Virus record (IMG/VR): IMGVR_UViG_2585427970_000004
DNA: 41,455 nt
Source of the DNA: a virus
Lineage: Duplodnaviria > Heunggongvirae > Uroviricota > Caudoviricetes
Strand: one strand, 5' to 3'
Both the position numbers and the translations under genes were made by a program. Numbering within the stretch: the first letter of the stretch is position 1; each line of letters starts with the position of its first letter. The notes below the pieces were generated by a model. The model was not told where the DNA came from. It did no database searches and was given only the letters and a program-made list of their open reading frames with translations. Below are positions 1,357 to 34,830 of the stretch, piece after piece.

Positions 1357-2247
1357 TCAGGCTGCCAGATCATCGTTTCCGATGGAAGCATAATAAGCTT
1401 TTTCTGCTTCTGCCGGAGGAGTATGGCCCAGCCTTTCCAGCAATCGTCGATTGTTATACCAGTCCACCCACGTGAGTGTGGCCAGTTCCACTTCTGCACG
1501 GTTTTTCCAGCTCTTACGGTGTATTACCTCCGCTTTGTAAAGACCATTGATGCTCTCCGCCATCGCGTTGTCATACGAGTCGCCTGTACTTCCTGTTGAT
1601 GCCAGTAATCCGGCTTCCTTAAGCCGCTGTGTGTAGGCCAGCGATACATACTGAGAACCTTTATCACTGTGATGGACCGTGCCGGACGGTCGACGGGCCC
1701 ATAACGCCTGCTCCAGTGCATCCAGCACGAATGTCGTTTCCATGGACGATGAGACCCGCCACCCCACGATGTATCCGGCAAACACATCAATGATGAACGC
1801 CACATAGACGAAGCCCCGCCATGTGCTGACGTAAGTAAAATCAGCCACCCACAGCTGGTCAGGTCGTTCTGCCACGAACTGACGGTTTACGCGGTCGCCT
1901 GCGGCAACGGCTTTCCGGCTGATGGTCGTACGGACCTTTTTACCCCGGAGAACACCGGCAAGTCCCATAACCGCCATGAGACGTGCCACAGTGCATCTGG
2001 CCACTCTGATACCTTCCCGTAACAACTGACGCCAGACTTTACGCACACCGTATACCTTGTGATTTTCATCGTATACGCGCTGTATCTCTTTCTTCAGCCA
2101 GTCATCGCGCTGCGCACGGGCACTGCGTTTATCCGGATGATGTCGCTGTTGCTGACAGTGGTAATACGTTGACGGGGCAATATGTAGTTCACTGCATACC
2201 GGTCCGACCCCGTACAGCTTACGCAGCTTATCCAGCAGTGGCATCAC
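1357..2247 (-). CDS. IS3-family transposase OrfB (DDE integrase core), probably expressed as an OrfAB frameshift fusion
   Basis: 296-aa ORF with DDE-type core ([11 protein letters not shown]...HSDKGSQY...[15 protein letters not shown]); overlaps OrfA in the -1 frame at an AAAAAG stretch (2247..2252 on the minus strand). Confidence 0.9.
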
Positions 2248-22608: not shown

Positions 22609-22788
22609 TCCCCGCTTTATCCAAATTGCATTGCCAGAATGCCGACAACAGACTGACATTCAAATCCTGACTACCTCCAATAGTCTGACCGTACACCTAT
22701 ATAGTTTTAATTTTCATCAATCCATTTAACTATCGTTTAATTGTTGTCACATAGGATTCTGCCGTTTTTAACAATGCAGGATAATAAG

Positions 22789-23082
22789 ATGAAAAAAATG
22801 TTGTTTTCTGCCGCTCTGGCAATGCTTATTACAGGATGTGCTCAACAGACGTTTACTGTTGGAAACAAACCGACAGCAGTAACACCAAAGGAAACCATCA
22901 CCCATCATTTCTTCGTTTCGGGAATTGGACAGGAGAAAACTGTTGATGCAGCCAAAATTTGTGGCGGCGCAGAAAATGTGGTTAAAACAGAAACCCAGCA
23001 AACATTCGTAAATGGATTGCTCGGTTTTATTACTTTAGGCATTTATACTCCGCTGGAAGCGCGGGTGTATTGCTCACAATAA
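22789..23082 (+). CDS. bor: Bor-family lipoprotein (lambda Bor-like)
   Basis: Start at ATG 22789 (MKKMLFSAALAMLITGCAQQTF…, lipobox LITGC); recalled as near-identical to lambda Bor; opposite strand to the lysis genes. Confidence 0.85.
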   Translation: MKKMLFSAALAMLITGCAQQTFTVGNKPTAVTPKETITHHFFVSGIGQEKTVDAAKICGGAENVVKTETQQTFVNGLLGFITLGIYTPLEARVYCSQ

Positions 23083-26297: not shown

Positions 26298-26752
26298 TAC
26301 GCCTCCTGCTTGTCGCGCAGTAGCTGGAATTCGCAGCTCTGTGGAATAGTCAGGTGGCAACCAATATTCATCGCCCAGGCTTCAACCTTACACAGGAAGA
26401 CATACATCTCTCCGGTATCGAGATCGGAGGTATGACGTAATGACTGAATGGTGGTGATTTCACCGGTTACGACATCAACCAGTTCTTTGGTTTCATAACC
26501 GAGATAAGTGTGTTTGAGAGCATCTTTTACCCAAGCTGGAGTGGCGAACGTTTTACCCCTGCTGATGAGGTATTCACTGATTTCGCTGTACCACATGTGG
26601 CTGAGTGCATTCTGGGAAAGACTGCGTCTCTCGCGCCACGGTTTAAGCACCATGCGAAAGCATTTGCCGTCCTCCAGATAAGGCTGGATCTGCCGACCGA
26701 TAGCGGTGAAGTTACCGCGATGCAATTTGATACCATCTTGTGGGAGGTTCAC
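26297..26752 (-). CDS. YbcN/NinB-family protein
   Basis: 151 aa; [55 protein letters not shown]… recalled as DLP12 YbcN-like. Confidence 0.75.
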
Positions 26753-27090
26753 GCTTCACCTCCGCAGAGATCAAACGCTGGATGCAAAATATCGCAGGTG
26801 CATTTCTGCATCTGTGAATGGAGAAGAGAGGTTGGATTGTATGTGCGCATAAACGTCCCCGTTTAGCGCAGAAGTCACCGGAGTTGTTCAGGCTCCGATG
26901 ACATGATTATGGCGGGTTGATAACGAAAAATCAAAACTACTTTTTGGTGTTCTGTTCGGCCATTTCGATGTAGCGCGGATCAGATGCGCTGGCTATTCTC
27001 TGGCGACCCGTTCCGCTATCATCGGCATGTTCAAACATTTTGTAAGCGTCACCGGAGGTGGTGAGATCAACGTTACATTACTATATTTAT

Positions 27091-27122
27091 AATAAGCCTC
27101 AATTCAAACATTGAGGCTTATT
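27091..27122 (-). other. Perfect 12-bp-stem hairpin immediately downstream of the RloB-like gene (possible terminator or RNA stability element)
   Basis: aataagcctcaa-ttcaaaca-ttgaggcttatt; 13 nt past the stop codon; no clean U-tract. Confidence 0.4.
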
Positions 27123-27134
27123 ATAATGAAAAAA

Positions 27135-27770
27135 TTACGGCACAAATGAATCTATAGCATCAAGCAACTCATTCACATTCGTATAACACCCAAGAAGAAA
27201 TGGTCTATTAGAATGAGGAGGAGCTGCATTTAAACTTTGTTTATTTAGTGCCTTCGCTCTTTGTCTGGCATAAGGAATACCAAGTCTAATTTTCTTATAC
27301 AACGTAGCATCGGCTTTATTATAATCCTTTATACCCACTGATAGTAAATCTTTTTTCAAAGTAGAGTTTTTCTTTAGATCATCAAAACTTGAGTAAGGTG
27401 TATTCTTAAATGCAAAGTGTTGTAAAATCCACAATTCAAAACAAACATTTGACAACGCAATATTAATATTGTTTGCATGGGCTAAATCCCATGCTTCATG
27501 GTGTAATGTGTGTGGGTATTTTGTGACAGCCTCTCTATCATATACAACCCAAAATTCATCATCATCCGATGTATCACCACTTTCCTTGTGTTTAATTGCA
27601 GCCTTTACTAAGGCTATTGGTGTGTTATATTTTATATCAGGGATATGTATAACTTTTGCTTTCTCACTAGCAAATTCATCGATATAACCCTGCAAGTACA
27701 TAGGTTCTGTTTTAGACCCTTCGCAAAAAATATGCATTCGTTTCTCTAATTTTCTCACGTTTTTTGCCAT
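27135..27770 (-). CDS. RloB-like (Toprim-like) protein, AbiLii-like
   Basis: 211 aa; N-terminal HIFCEGSKTEP and acidic FWVVYDRE motifs consistent with RloB/Toprim; AAGGTGA RBS; starts 6 nt after the ATPase stop; AT-rich. Confidence 0.65.
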   Translation of the reverse strand: MAKNVRKLEKRMHIFCEGSKTEPMYLQGYIDEFASEKAKVIHIPDIKYNTPIALVKAAIKHKESGDTSDDDEFWVVYDREAVTKYPHTLHHEAWDLAHANNINIALSNVCFELWILQHFAFKNTPYSSFDDLKKNSTLKKDLLSVGIKDYNKADATLYKKIRLGIPYARQRAKALNKQSLNAAPPHSNRPFLLGCYTNVNELLDAIDSFVP

Positions 27771-27776
27771 GATCTA

Positions 27777-29117
27777 TCACCTTAAATCTTCTGGAATATC
27801 ATCGATGTTACCAAATACTGTTAAATCAGTATCTTCAGGTTCACCACCTGTTACCCCAATGATAAAATCCTTTATTTTCATATAGTTAATTGATGGGACG
27901 CCACCAAAACGCCCTTCATCATACCACTTGTTAAAAGGTGAATTAGCCTTAACCTTTTCTTTATCAAACTCATCTAAACTATAAACTTCGGTTACACCTT
28001 TTTTCTTTTCAGTAAACCAAATCTGATCTCTTCTCATATTTTCTGATTTCATCAGCTCAATGTTATGAGTTGTAAATATGAGCTGAGAGCCTACTTTATT
28101 AACCTCACTATCGTTAAACAGTCTGATTAAAAGTGCAGCCAAATGTGGATGCATGCTGTGGTCTATTTCATCGATAATTAACACTCGATTTATTAAAAGA
28201 CCAGAAATTAGGGCAGGTGTTAATTCAAATAACCTACGGGTTCCTGCTGACTCATTTTCAATATCTATATCAGCACATTCTCCACCCTCCATGTCATGCT
28301 CAAATTTAAAGCTAAATCGATTTTCAGCCAAAATTCTTCGTTTCATATCTTCCGGCATTTCATCAGGTAGCTTAATATCTAGTTCTTTATTTTCGACAAT
28401 CCTTAGTTGGTTTATACCCGTATCAACCAATGATAAGAAGTTACCGGAAAAACGAATAAGCATGTCTCTAAATTTCTCATCCTCAAGATGAAGAGCATTA
28501 AAACTTGATTCCATTCCAATAGGACAAATTAACTGCGAAAAGTACTCATATACTTCCTTAGCAATCTCTGGAGCCTCAGCGACAGTGCCGATCTTTGATA
28601 GATAAGAGTTATTTTTAGAAAATGGAATTTTCTTTACTCCACCTTTGAATTGCGCCCCAAATTTAATATTCTCCCAACCATTATTCACACGATAGAACAA
28701 ATTCGATGGCTGCTTGGAGTAATAACAATCTAAACTCTCCAATATAATTTCTTTTTGAAGATAATGTATTTTATATTTAAATTTCAAATCATTGATCACA
28801 AAGTCAATTTCAAACTTTACTGGCTTTGAGATTGTTTTTTGACAAAGAGAATATGGTTCATAACAAGGGATATCCTCGCCATCTTTCAACGAAAAGCTAT
28901 CCTCAACAAGATAATTTAATGCAGAAAACACCTTTAGAAGGTTTGACTTCCCTGAAGCATTAGGACCATAAATTCCAACGGTACGTACAACCCGCTCATT
29001 GCTTTTGGGAAGAACAAGCAAATTATCGCTTAAGTGGTTACTTGTTGAACTACGCAGATCAAAGTTAACCTCTTCTTTGATCGACCTAAAATTCTCAACT
29101 TTTAAGGAAATTATCAT
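27777..29117 (-). CDS. ABC/AAA_21-type ATPase, AbiLi-like
   Basis: 446 aa; Walker A GPNASGKS (about aa 51-58), Walker B LIIDEID (about aa 313-319), TTHN H-loop-like motif; long helical insert between them as in OLD/AbiL-type ATPases; AT-rich. Confidence 0.7.
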   Translation of the reverse strand: MIISLKVENFRSIKEEVNFDLRSSTSNHLSDNLLVLPKSNERVVRTVGIYGPNASGKSNLLKVFSALNYLVEDSFSLKDGEDIPCYEPYSLCQKTISKPVKFEIDFVINDLKFKYKIHYLQKEIILESLDCYYSKQPSNLFYRVNNGWENIKFGAQFKGGVKKIPFSKNNSYLSKIGTVAEAPEIAKEVYEYFSQLICPIGMESSFNALHLEDEKFRDMLIRFSGNFLSLVDTGINQLRIVENKELDIKLPDEMPEDMKRRILAENRFSFKFEHDMEGGECADIDIENESAGTRRLFELTPALISGLLINRVLIIDEIDHSMHPHLAALLIRLFNDSEVNKVGSQLIFTTHNIELMKSENMRRDQIWFTEKKKGVTEVYSLDEFDKEKVKANSPFNKWYDEGRFGGVPSINYMKIKDFIIGVTGGEPEDTDLTVFGNIDDIPEDLR

Positions 29118-29473
29118 AAAACGATCCTCTAAAACGTACTTTTACAGTAAAAAAATGACAAAAAATGCCTAATCACGAGATTGTAATCTATAATAATATA
29201 CTTTTATACAACTATTTCTTGGTTTTGTACCCTTATAAGCACAAGAAGAATGCAATCATCATATTGAGTTACTACAAGAGCTGGACTGCCCCCTTCCGGA
29301 AGACGATCTTGCCCGATAGTTTCTTCCCTCCACTCCCACGGGTCTACGCCAGTTGGGCATCCTGAAAACTCCCGACAATCTCGATGGTTTCCAGCGCTGC
29401 TATGGGGTCGTTCATGATAATTATATTAAGTTTGACCAAAAACTGACTTCACCTTCAGAAGGAGCGCAGTTAA

Positions 29474-29674
29474 TCAAATCGATAATTTCTTCAGGTGTCT
29501 CTTTAACGTCGATATACTCGCCAGAGGATATTTCAGAGTTGTAATACCATGCAGAGTCATGATAACGATATGCCCTACGGCAACAAACACAGGCTCGAAG
29601 ACTGTTTCAGGTTCCCAGCCATATTTCCCCTGACGCTCAATCGTCGCTTGCTGGCTCAATTTGATGATTTTCAT
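29474..29674 (-). CDS. Hypothetical protein downstream of ren
   Basis: 66-aa ORF, start overlapping the ren stop; no assignable family. Confidence 0.3.
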   Translation of the reverse strand: MKIIKLSQQATIERQGKYGWEPETVFEPVFVAVGHIVIMTLHGITTLKYPLASISTLKRHLKKLSI

Positions 29675-29964
29675 GTCTTAGCTCTCCCATATACCGCCAA
29701 TACCCGTTTCATCGCGGCACTCTGGCGACACTCCTTAAAAATCAGATTCGTGCTCACCTTTCCTTCCCGTTCTTCTCTGGTAGCGAACCGGTAATACACC
29801 GTTCGCCAGACCTTACCATCAACGACCAGGATTCCTGCCCGCGCCATTTTAGCCGCAGCCTGATTTATGCTGGTTACGGTTGCGCCTGTTACCGCGGCAA
29901 CGTCCTGCGCACAGAAGTTCTTATGAGTCCCCAGGTAATGAATAATTGCCTCTTTGCCCGTCAT
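29671..29964 (-). CDS. ren: Ren-like protein
   Basis: 97 aa; MTGKEAIIHYLGTHKNFCAQDVAAVTGATVTSINQAAAKMARAG… recalled as lambda Ren-like; overlaps the P stop. Confidence 0.8.
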   Translation of the reverse strand: MTGKEAIIHYLGTHKNFCAQDVAAVTGATVTSINQAAAKMARAGILVVDGKVWRTVYYRFATREEREGKVSTNLIFKECRQSAAMKRVLAVYGRAKT

Positions 29965-32546: not shown

Positions 32547-32575
32547 TTGACCATCAATACGCAAGCGTATAAATT
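32547..32575 (+). promoter_or_regulatory. PRM-like promoter for cI; transcript predicted leaderless
   Basis: -35 TTGACC (32547..32552), 17-bp spacer, -10 TAAATT (32570..32575), ending about 7 nt before the cI ATG at 32583, which has no SD. Confidence 0.45.
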
Positions 32576-32582
32576 AAAACTT

Positions 32583-33275
32583 ATGAAAAAAGAAACTCTT
32601 GCTGATCGCTTAAACCTAGCGATGGAACAATCTGGAATGTCTCAAGGCGCTCTTGCAAAGGCGTCTGGCGTAGCTCAACCCACAATCTGGAGACTGACAA
32701 GCGGCAACGCGCGTGGCTCAACAAAAATTGTTGAAATAGCTAATGCATTGGGTGTTCGAACAGAGTGGCTCTCATCAGGCATAGGCCCGATGAGAAATGA
32801 CGGTCAACAATCAGGAAAGCCTGCTGTCAACCATTCCAAATACTTCAAGATTGACGTTCTTGATATAGAAGTGAGTGCCGGGCCGGGAGTCATCAACCGT
32901 GAGTTTGTAGAAGTTCTACGCTCGGTTGAGTACTCGTTTGACGATGCTCGTCACATGTTCGATGGTAGGAAGGCAGAAAATATCCGCATCATTAACGTGC
33001 GTGGTGACAGCATGTCAGGAACGATCGAACCAGGTGATCTGCTGTTCGTTGATATCACGGTTAAATCTTTCGACGGTGATGGTATCTATGCGTTTCTGTA
33101 CGACGACACAGCCCATGTAAAGCGCCTGCAAATGATGAAGGATAAGCTGCTGGTTATCTCTGATAACAAGAGCTACTCACCGTGGGACCCGATCGAGAAA
33201 GACGAGATGAACCGGGTGTTTATCTTCGGGAAAGTTATTGGGAGCATGCCGCAGACGTACAGGAAGCATGGGTAA
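32583..33275 (+). CDS. cI: CI-like repressor (HTH_XRE plus S24 LexA-like peptidase domain)
   Basis: Start refined to ATG 32583 (MKKETLADRLNLAMEQSGMSQGALAKASGVAQPTIWRL…); C-terminal GDSMSGTIEPGDLLFVD…HVKRL autocleavage-type motifs (Ser…Lys); track start is TTG. Confidence 0.85.
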   Translation: MKKETLADRLNLAMEQSGMSQGALAKASGVAQPTIWRLTSGNARGSTKIVEIANALGVRTEWLSSGIGPMRNDGQQSGKPAVNHSKYFKIDVLDIEVSAGPGVINREFVEVLRSVEYSFDDARHMFDGRKAENIRIINVRGDSMSGTIEPGDLLFVDITVKSFDGDGIYAFLYDDTAHVKRLQMMKDKLLVISDNKSYSPWDPIEKDEMNRVFIFGKVIGSMPQTYRKHG

Positions 33276-33320: not shown

Positions 33321-33740
33321 ATGATGCAACATAATATTCATAGTGATTATTTCAAGTGGTGGTGTGGAACGGTAATCATTGGAGCAATCCCTATCTTTAT
33401 TAGATTTATTGCTTATTTCATCACTAATAAAAATATAGAGATGATCAATATAACTGAGTTGATATGTTTTGGCTTTGCCATACAAATATCCAGCATCTAT
33501 TACGGAATGGGCCAACCTAGTAAGCAAACTGAAAACAATATTATTTTAAATACTACTATATCGATTGTTTTCATTGTGATTTTTTCTATAATTTACATTA
33601 TTGTCATGCTGGCTGATAACATCCTTAACATGAATACGACTCGCATATTAGTCGCTATTACTTGTGGTATATCCTTATACATTGGACAAAATTCGGTCAG
33701 GTGTGCTATTATCAATAACAAATTAGCAGCGCAGGAGTAA
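33321..33740 (+). CDS. Small integral membrane protein (4 predicted TM helices), first gene of the cassette in the rexAB-equivalent slot
   Basis: 139 aa; four hydrophobic segments; very AT-rich; immediately downstream of cI. Confidence 0.55.
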   Translation: MMQHNIHSDYFKWWCGTVIIGAIPIFIRFIAYFITNKNIEMINITELICFGFAIQISSIYYGMGQPSKQTENNIILNTTISIVFIVIFSIIYIIVMLADNILNMNTTRILVAITCGISLYIGQNSVRCAIINNKLAAQE

Positions 33741-33743
33741 ATT

Positions 33744-33920
33744 ATGGAGTTCTTAATTACTATTTTATCCATAATAGCTGTTGTGATACCTGCTGTATTG
33801 GCATGGTTTTCAAGAAAAAACCTCAAAAATGCACAGGAAACTTTAATTCACATAGAAAGGATCAGAAAATCAAACAGCGATGACTTTGAAAGAAAGAAAG
33901 AACAACTTAAATATCACTAA
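33744..33920 (+). CDS. Small single-TM protein (58 aa), below the ORF-track threshold
   Basis: AGGAG RBS 6 nt upstream of ATG 33744; MEFLITILSIIAVVIPAVLAWFSRKNLKNAQETLIHIERIRKSNSDDFERKKEQLKYH. Confidence 0.4.
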   Translation: MEFLITILSIIAVVIPAVLAWFSRKNLKNAQETLIHIERIRKSNSDDFERKKEQLKYH

Positions 33921-34830
33921 TGGAATTGGTATGCAGTTAAAAAATATCATTTATATTGATTATGAGAAGGTCTACTCTTTAAGCTCTCAATTATTTGAGG
34001 GCGTAATTCAATCCGCGATGGAGCATAAAGAGTCTACTCTTTCAAATATAGATGCAGTCGAAATTAAGACAAAAAGTAGTTCAAGTAAAACGAGTGACAC
34101 AAAAAAATTATCAACAGTGTTAAACCCTCATGATTACCATTATCTGAAATTTGAAAACGAACTTAGCAATAGAGGAATTCTATCTAACATAACTTCCCCG
34201 ATCGACTCGAACAAAATTAAGGCTAATTGCTTTGTTAAAATCACCTGCCCTATTCAATTTAATGACTATAGTAAATTAAAAAATACCGCGAAGGATTTTT
34301 GTAAAATTCACTATGCTATTAATTTCGTTCATCGAAATGGTGAATTAGAAAACCTAGAATCGATGCTGAAATCGATAAAACCCAAATCCAATGAATTTAA
34401 TATTATCAAGGCAAGACAAGCACAAATCAAAAGTGAGCTTGATAATTTAACTTCTCCAAATAAGAAAAAGTTTCTTGAGCATCTGTCTTCTGTTTTAGAT
34501 TACGCATATGGTGACGAAATAGAAATATCACAAAAAATGCAAGATATTAAATTCACCTCATTCTTAATCAGAGATTTTCTTAAAATCAGCCCAGAAATGT
34601 TTGTAAAGTTATATTCTCGTCGAACGACCTCTGCATTCACTGTCGTAGGGATGATAACGCGTACATCAACGTCTGAAGGCGATCAGGAATCAGAGGCTCG
34701 TGAACTAAGCGGCATTCGCAGTGCGGTCTGGAATATGAATGACAGCCTTTTTGATCTGGAGTCAACATTTTGTGCCCCTGACTCTGATGAATATTTCATT
34801 GAGCCTATTGCTGTTTACAATGAGCTATAA
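33880..34830 (+). CDS. Hypothetical soluble protein (~300-316 aa), third gene of the rex-slot cassette
   Basis: ORF from ATG 33880 overlaps the 58-aa ORF by 41 nt; alternative start ATG 33931 lies 10 nt after that ORF's stop; no motif I can assign; AT-rich; followed by a terminator. Confidence 0.55.
   Translation: MTLKERKNNLNITNGIGMQLKNIIYIDYEKVYSLSSQLFEGVIQSAMEHKESTLSNIDAVEIKTKSSSSKTSDTKKLSTVLNPHDYHYLKFENELSNRGILSNITSPIDSNKIKANCFVKITCPIQFNDYSKLKNTAKDFCKIHYAINFVHRNGELENLESMLKSIKPKSNEFNIIKARQAQIKSELDNLTSPNKKKFLEHLSSVLDYAYGDEIEISQKMQDIKFTSFLIRDFLKISPEMFVKLYSRRTTSAFTVVGMITRTSTSEGDQESEARELSGIRSAVWNMNDSLFDLESTFCAPDSDEYFIEPIAVYNEL

Follow-up and report, generated by a model that had tools for sequence, protein, structure and literature searches.

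A putative AbiL-type ATPase–RloB gene pair carried as cargo between ren and ybcN of an Escherichia coli lambdoid prophage

AbiL has been grouped with PARIS and OLD among the systems that combine an ABC ATPase with a Toprim domain (PMC11464382, PMC13064643). In PARIS, a hexamer of the ATPase AriA sequesters AriB, an enzyme that cleaves tRNA (PMC11464382), and sensing of the trigger Ocr frees AriB to cleave tRNA-Lys (PMC11464382, PMC12409363). P2 OLD forms a closed tetramer that opens to become an active tRNase (bioRxiv 10.64898/2026.07.10.737580), and in the NetFlax study an RloB-type toxin (node D44) was neutralised by its cognate AAA ATPase in E. coli (PMC10440598). In Lactococcus, AbiL exerts its effect once phage transcription has taken place (PMC13064643). 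AbiL has been recognised by name as a defence system since 1999, and standard tools find it as a matter of routine, with AbiLi/AbiLii models in both PADLOC and DefenseFinder. Its trigger, target and architecture have not been worked out, and reviews from 2024–2026 name it, next to PARIS, as a case still to be solved. Here we describe an ATPase–RloB gene pair in a 41,455-nucleotide stretch of viral DNA (IMG/VR record IMGVR_UViG_2585427970_000004, Caudoviricetes), which we refer to in full length as the window, and compare it with these systems.

The pair lies on the minus strand of the window and consists of an ATPase gene (29117..27777, 446 amino acids (aa), ATG start) followed by a gene for an RloB protein (27770..27135, 211 aa, ATG start), with a spacer of 6 nt (27771..27776) that can be read directly from the sequence. 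This is the arrangement that an earlier note on this DNA had described: two co-directional genes, 6 nt apart, of 446 and 211 aa. The motifs quoted there were located at residues 51–58 (GPNASGKS) and 312–318 (LIIDEID) of the ATPase and at residues 15–23 (FCEGSKTEP) of the second protein. Profile searches placed the ATPase in the Pfam family AAA_21 with an E-value of 4.8e-28 (99.5 bits, cut-off 27), and AAA_15 was also matched above its cut-off (3.4e-09). Among PADLOC models, AbiLi (PDLC02335) scored best at 1.8e-83 (278 bits), followed by AriA at 1.6e-28. The second protein matched Pfam RloB (PF13707) at 4.3e-30 (105.8 bits, cut-off 31.5) over positions 3–194 of the 195-position profile, and the sole PADLOC model that it matched was AbiLii (PDLC02337) at 9.2e-21. 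Neither DUF4435 (PF14491) nor AriB was matched by this protein at E ≤ 0.1 in Pfam or PADLOC. Chance is ruled out for the two genes because the profile E-values reach 1e-83 and 4e-30.

We also asked whether the ATPase might be assigned to a transport or repair family, an outcome that the note had named as one that would speak against its reading. This assignment was rejected; no such family reached its cut-off in Pfam or NCBIfam, and the NCBIfam search returned only ABC or ABC-transporter matches below threshold. In PHROGs, the ATPase belongs to phrog_5836, a family of unknown function. The AbiLi/AbiLii pairing that the note had proposed thus stands, with both models far ahead of all others, and the profile searches that it had suggested gave matches above cut-off for AAA_21, AAA_15 and RloB and none for DUF4435. 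Every AbiL feature that can be examined in sequence was found at this locus: the gene order, an AbiLi/AAA_21/AAA_15 ATPase, an AbiLii/RloB partner and a predicted Toprim fold with acidic motifs. Moreover, a Lactococcus prophage pair that carries an abortive-infection annotation scores no higher with the AbiL profiles than the present pair. These sequence features support assignment of the module to the AbiL-type two-gene anti-phage family, and by analogy with that family they support a putative role in phage resistance.

To characterize the ATPase further, we aligned it with 44 homologues. The invariant or nearly invariant positions comprise the Walker A residues G51 and N53–S58, a signature-like element E289-S-x-G-T293, the Walker B residues D316-E317, H351 of the H-loop and a block R362-R-D-Q365. 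An AlphaFold model (pLDDT 81.9) displays an ABC head in which a helical insert of about 110 residues lies between two lobes, and Foldseek returned Rad50 heads, PtuA (from Septu and retron complexes) and Thermus OLD as the nearest structures. The protein lacks a long coiled coil, and there is no Mre11/SbcD partner. As judged from its sequence, the first protein is an ABC ATPase of the Rad50/SMC type in which the nucleotide-binding and hydrolysis motifs are all intact.

In the second protein, the residues invariant among 53 RloB homologues are C16-E17-G18, T21-E22-P23, N49-T50, D71, W74, V76-Y77-D78-R79-E80, H90, C110-F111-E112 and H118. The predicted structure (pLDDT 93.4, pTM 0.89) has its nearest counterparts in the Toprim domains of OLD, GajA and AriB, which bears out the RloB/Toprim-like identity claimed in the note along with the PF13707 match. 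Fold assignments for both proteins were made through predicted structures, because sequence and profile searches of the Protein Data Bank (PDB) returned no meaningful relative of either the ATPase or the RloB protein. The elements of the RloB model follow the order β1 (12–16), helix, short strand, helix, β3 (72–78), helix, β4 (103–107), which places E17 immediately after β1 and D78-x-E80 immediately after β3. This placement of catalytic residues corresponds to the Toprim signature given for RloB in PMC12065111. We therefore describe the second protein as a predicted Toprim nuclease whose acidic catalytic set appears intact in sequence.

The two genes travel together. In IMG/VR, 218 contigs encode a relative, and 79 loci were kept for a check of the pair; an RloB-profile open reading frame (ORF) lies directly downstream on the same strand in 72 of these, and four of the seven exceptions run off the contig. 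In every context inspected the ATPase comes first and RloB second. When pairs from the same contigs or organisms were matched, the identities of the two proteins moved in step (69/73, 50/57, 49/56 and 46/46%). Relatives of the pair were found at the end of a Yersinia prophage (55%), among TraI/TraG-type conjugation genes of a probable conjugative element in Salmonella (44%), in the replication-gene/portal hotspot of a P2-like phage of Klebsiella (31%) and in a Lactococcus prophage, where both proteins carry the abortive-infection annotation mentioned above (27%). Co-inheritance of the two genes extends over the Gammaproteobacteria and over mobile elements of many kinds. A separate look at the ATPase gene alone turned up proteins about 44% identical on very small plasmids (3.9–5.3 kb) of E. 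coli and Klebsiella, where a toxin–antitoxin-like stabilizing role may be at work.

The window is a complete lambdoid prophage inserted at tRNA-Thr(CGT) and adjoining proA, and the local gene order is O, P, ren, a 66-aa ORF, the ATPase and RloB genes, a 33-aa ORF, ybcN, ninE, ybcO, rusA, ylcG and Q. The note had seen the module as cargo inserted in the nin region and strongly AT-rich relative to its flanks. Both points were borne out: the G+C fraction is 0.33–0.35 over approximately 27000–29200 and 0.49–0.55 in ybcN/ninE/rusA and P/ren, and sibling prophages share the flanks and carry other genes between ren and ybcN. Break-points in blastn alignments against four siblings delimit a variable segment at about 26936–29684, and the siblings' slots hold ead/Ea22-like genes, a gene for a DUF4041 protein, a P22AR/Bro-N antirepressor-like gene, a ybcK recombinase gene, zinc-ribbon or TagO-like genes and insertion sequences. 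Megablast found the module in two of 5,426 complete E. coli genomes, those of the bovine strains NADC1036 (100%) and OkiPb01685 (99.9%); a 5.6-kb stretch that includes the flanks matched 3,807 of the same 5,426 genomes at about 51% coverage. In a set of 50,697 phage records, megablast gave no match to the module, and relatives there are distant and visible at the protein level only. The exact ATPase sequence occurred in 48 blocks of the assembly collection and was identical on all 24 contigs read; in all 10 places shown it occupied the same slot, in prophages that differ in immunity-region cargo and late genes.

A comparison with Klebsiella lambdoid prophages defined the exchanged DNA more closely. 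These prophages have different replication and nin genes and share with the window one 2.65-kb block at about 90% identity (29632..26981 on the minus strand, blastn break-points), which falls inside the variable segment. Because this single block is common to otherwise different prophages, the unit of exchange is a cassette that includes the leader and a hairpin as well as the genes. The note's span of 27091–29117 was accordingly too narrow for the exchanged DNA (approximately 26981–29632), and its account of the genes within that span was right. At the boundaries we found only short repeats at chance level and none that would mark a discrete mobile element, so mosaic recombination between lambdoid phages explains the cassette better. 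A moron is an extra, self-contained block of cargo genes in a phage. Foreign base composition, absence from close relatives and a hairpin are all present at this locus, and a promoter was not convincingly found. Read from its sequence features, the module is probably moron cargo in the ren–ybcN slot of a lambdoid prophage.

The slot has further occupants. In the NADC1036 prophage (L001 18542–19951), an extra segment of about 1.5 kb lies between the AbiL module and ybcN and contains a Bro-N/P22AR antirepressor-like gene together with a duplicated fragment of the ybcN-proximal flank, which shows serial stacking of cargo at the ren–ybcN site. On the other side of the module, the 66-aa ORF (29474..29674, minus strand) overlaps the ren stop codon; its residues 1–49 alone match phrog_8458, a profile of 75 positions. 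Relative to the Klebsiella cassette a 1-nt indel shifts its frame, and the Klebsiella frame is still open in the window. This ORF is probably a frameshifted neighbouring gene outside the ATPase–RloB system.

We next considered how the module might be expressed. A Shine–Dalgarno-like sequence, AAGG(TG), for the RloB gene lies within the end of the ATPase gene, and this position together with the 6-nt gap suggests translational coupling; the ATPase gene itself has AGAGGA 7 nt ahead of its ATG. Plus-strand ORFs within the region (112, 72 and 57 aa) matched no Pfam family, the 112-aa ORF also had no PHROG match, and an Rfam search of 26700–29800 found no RNA family. Downstream, a hairpin (27087..27126, minus strand; arms 27087–27103 and 27110–27126) begins 9 nt past the RloB stop codon. 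A perfect hairpin after the genes had been foreseen with a 12-bp stem; the hairpin is there, and its perfect stem measures 17 bp around a 6-nt loop. The folded RNA has a ΔG of −22.6 kcal/mol (z = −6.85), a stability that no sequence among 200 shuffles reached. The Klebsiella cassette keeps only the inner 10-bp stem (AAGCCTCAAT/ATTGAGGCTT). A strict terminator scan passed over the hairpin because its outer stem and the U-rich stretch overlap. We describe the element as terminator-like because a 10-bp, G+C-containing core precedes a U/A-rich stretch.

Upstream of the ATPase gene lies a non-coding leader of 356 nt (29118..29473, minus strand). E. coli and Klebsiella agree at every position (100% identity) in a stretch of about 56 nt within it (approximately 29262–29200), and the remaining leader is about 85–90% identical. 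The identical stretch holds a TCTTG...CAAGA symmetry and a weak promoter-like sequence, GGTACA-17-TATAAA (29231..29203). This stretch could be a candidate promoter or operator. As evidence for a promoter, however, conservation across the two lineages compared is marginal.

Taking as analogues PARIS (AriA/AriB), P2 OLD and those AAA:RloB-type toxin–antitoxin pairs that have been validated, we propose how the module might act. In the lysogen, an oligomer of the ATPase would hold the nuclease and keep it silent. A product or a DNA structure of an infecting phage would alter the state of the ATPase; the nuclease would then be freed or activated and cut nucleic acid, and the infected cell would halt growth or die ahead of completion of the phage cycle. 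Such early arrest would shield the lysogen population and, with it, the prophage. We consider this overall scheme, in which a sensor and antitoxin ATPase releases a Toprim RNase to bring about abortive infection, to be probable. We hold the RNA target with less confidence than the scheme as a whole. Among possible targets, tRNA or another RNA of the translation apparatus seems most likely, given that the lactococcal system takes effect once phage transcription is past and that AriB and P2 OLD are tRNases.

Several points weigh against the proposed scheme. A literature search found no phenotype or experiment for AbiL/RloB systems of E. coli or of prophages. The Toprim motif after β3 reads D-R-E instead of the classical DxD, and DNA nucleases (GajA and class 2 OLD) are among the nearest Toprim relatives of solved structure. 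Promoter scans upstream of the ATPase gene found no convincing sigma-70 site, and relaxed rules yielded weak candidates only. Since the module runs in the direction of the pR operon, read-through from pR during lytic growth is possible, and transcription of the module could come solely from pR, in lytic growth. On the chemistry, the serious rival is a variant of the same family in which RloB cuts or nicks phage DNA, as in Gabija or in class 1/2 OLD proteins, and so interferes with the phage directly. We judge this unlikely. Against it stand the reported activity of lactococcal AbiL after phage transcription (PMC13064643) and the finding that P2 OLD, long held to be a DNase, and AriB have now been shown to be tRNases in vivo. 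A block of translation was measured for AarT, another AAA-neutralised toxin, and not for the RloB-type one.

Three other readings compete with the proposed scheme. The module might be mainly a selfish toxin–antitoxin or addiction module that stabilizes its mobile element without a significant anti-phage role, as the ATPases on small plasmids of E. coli and Klebsiella and the behaviour of AAA:RloB-type pairs as toxin–antitoxin systems in neutralisation assays (PMC10440598) might suggest. However, the founding AbiL confers phage resistance (Deng 1999, via PMC13064643), and the pair occupies phage defence slots such as the P2-like replication-gene/portal hotspot (PMC9519451). Toxin–antitoxin behaviour and defence are in any case compatible, and PARIS is both; we regard this reading as improbable. 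The least probable reading, in our estimate, is that the pair, as a Rad50/SbcC-like ATPase with a nuclease, works in the DNA metabolism of the phage itself, in the company of nin recombination genes (YbcN/NinB-like, RusA). Rad50 heads are indeed the top structural matches of the ATPase, and the nin region does hold recombination functions (rusA, and ybcN, which is weakly NinB-like). This reading is difficult to reconcile with the rarity of the module (two of 5,426 genomes, against 3,807 for the flanking phage genes), with its foreign base composition and with the occurrence of the pair on a conjugative-type element, a P2-like phage and a Gram-positive prophage and of related ATPases on plasmids. 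Nor does it fit an ATPase that has neither the long coiled coil nor the Mre11/SbcD partner, or profile matches that are to defence families. Finally, the module might be silent or decaying cargo with no present function, which we consider very improbable. No strong promoter emerged from the scans, the adjacent 66-aa ORF is frameshifted, some copies in Klebsiella and Raoultella are truncated (P0006, P0008 and P0142), and AT-rich foreign DNA is often silenced. Both ORFs are nevertheless full length and keep every invariant residue of their families, and the ATPase is unchanged on all 24 contigs, with the 10 places shown lying in mosaically different prophages.

We also noted a tail on the ATPase. 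Residues 415–446, approximately (window 27780–27875), are acidic and predicted to be disordered, and they end in a short conserved motif, D-[VIL]-F-G-x-[ILVM]-[DNSE]-[DNG], with [IL]-P frequently after it, which in this protein is DLTVFGNIDDIPEDLR. Among 119 close homologues, 37 have a variable acidic linker that ends in [VILF]-F-G-x-[ILVMF]-[DENSTG]-[DENSG], often followed by [IL]-P; the remaining homologues end about 15 residues earlier, and three finish in ...FDDLF. We take the motif to resemble the acidic/aromatic C-terminal tips of single-stranded-DNA-binding proteins (SSB). It is a speculative and rather unlikely idea that this tail was acquired in the enterobacterial AbiLi branch as a sensing or auto-inhibitory element. 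If so, this branch would have a trigger logic that has not been described for PARIS, OLD or lactococcal AbiL. The tail might mimic nucleic acid or an SSB tail, sit on the nuclease or ATPase and be displaced from there by a phage protein; alternatively, it might bait phage proteins that hijack SSB partners.

Elsewhere in the prophage, a second AT-rich cargo block (33321–34830, plus strand, G+C fraction about 0.31) lies just downstream of a cI-like S24 repressor gene (32547–33275). It encodes a 139-aa ORF without a family and a 316-aa DUF6414 protein (1.2e-18), and it had no PADLOC match. Beside the cI-like repressor gene, siblings carry BstA-C, SIR2, a HipA-like gene plus DUF3037, or DUF6932, and this slot therefore looks like a defence slot. 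Close to the window's left end, on the tail-fibre side of the prophage, is an IS3-family transposase gene (rve, HTH_21; 1357–2247, minus strand). A Bor/Iss-type lipoprotein gene (22741–23082, plus strand; Lambda_Bor, 9.9e-31) lies in a patch of lower G+C content that has the lysis genes on one side and the terminase-side genes on the other. This gene is a classical lambdoid moron.

As a find, the module is ordinary, in that a defence-annotation pipeline would flag it as a member of the already known AbiL family. Its value lies in the setting. An intact 2.65-kb cassette in an E. coli lambdoid prophage would make a practical model in the host that is best equipped for genetics, and it could show whether all split ABC-ATPase/Toprim systems act like PARIS. 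In addition to the slot next to the cI repressor gene, this prophage family has a second site of variable cargo between ren and ybcN.

How, then, does the module compare with the known systems? With PARIS (AriA/AriB) it shares a separate ABC ATPase and a separate Toprim nuclease, and PARIS too is often phage- or satellite-borne (PMC11464382). PARIS identity was nevertheless rejected, as the PARIS effector AriB is a DUF4435 protein (PF14491), a family with no match here. Membership in the OLD family (classes 1–4) was rejected because OLD proteins fuse the two domains, whereas here they are encoded by two ORFs with a stop codon and a spacer between them; in comparison with P2 Old, GajA of Gabija and the retron-associated OLD, the module also lacks a UvrD-like or reverse-transcriptase partner. 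Septu (PtuAB) was rejected as well: the partner is RloB only, not an HNH nuclease, and PtuA models score far below AbiLi. The RloA/RloB proteins of Campylobacter jejuni type I restriction-modification loci (Miller et al. 2005) represent the same Pfam family with an ATPase partner, and one plasmid-borne homologue carries the annotation RloA. A restriction-linked RloAB locus was rejected, since no hsd or restriction-modification genes adjoin the module, whose neighbours are ren/P/O and ybcN/ninE/rusA/Q. The AAA(D29):TOPRIM_OLD(D44, RloB-like) pair of Clostridium algidicarnis (NetFlax, PMC10440598) has the same domain pair; it comes from a distant organism, is known as a toxin–antitoxin system and is likened to the module by its domains, not by sequence similarity.

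Lactococcal AbiL itself (AbiLi/AbiLii, Lactococcus lactis plasmid pND861, Deng et al. 1999) belongs to a different setting, the host here being a Gram-negative lambdoid prophage. Identity to the lactococcal-type prophage pair is only about 27% for the ATPase and 24% for RloB, the motif after β3 is D-R-E here and D-Y-D in the lactococcal RloB protein, and the acidic C-terminal tail of the ATPase is absent from the lactococcal one. The organization is nonetheless that of AbiL: in both, the ATPase comes first and the RloB/Toprim protein second, in AT-rich DNA on a mobile element.

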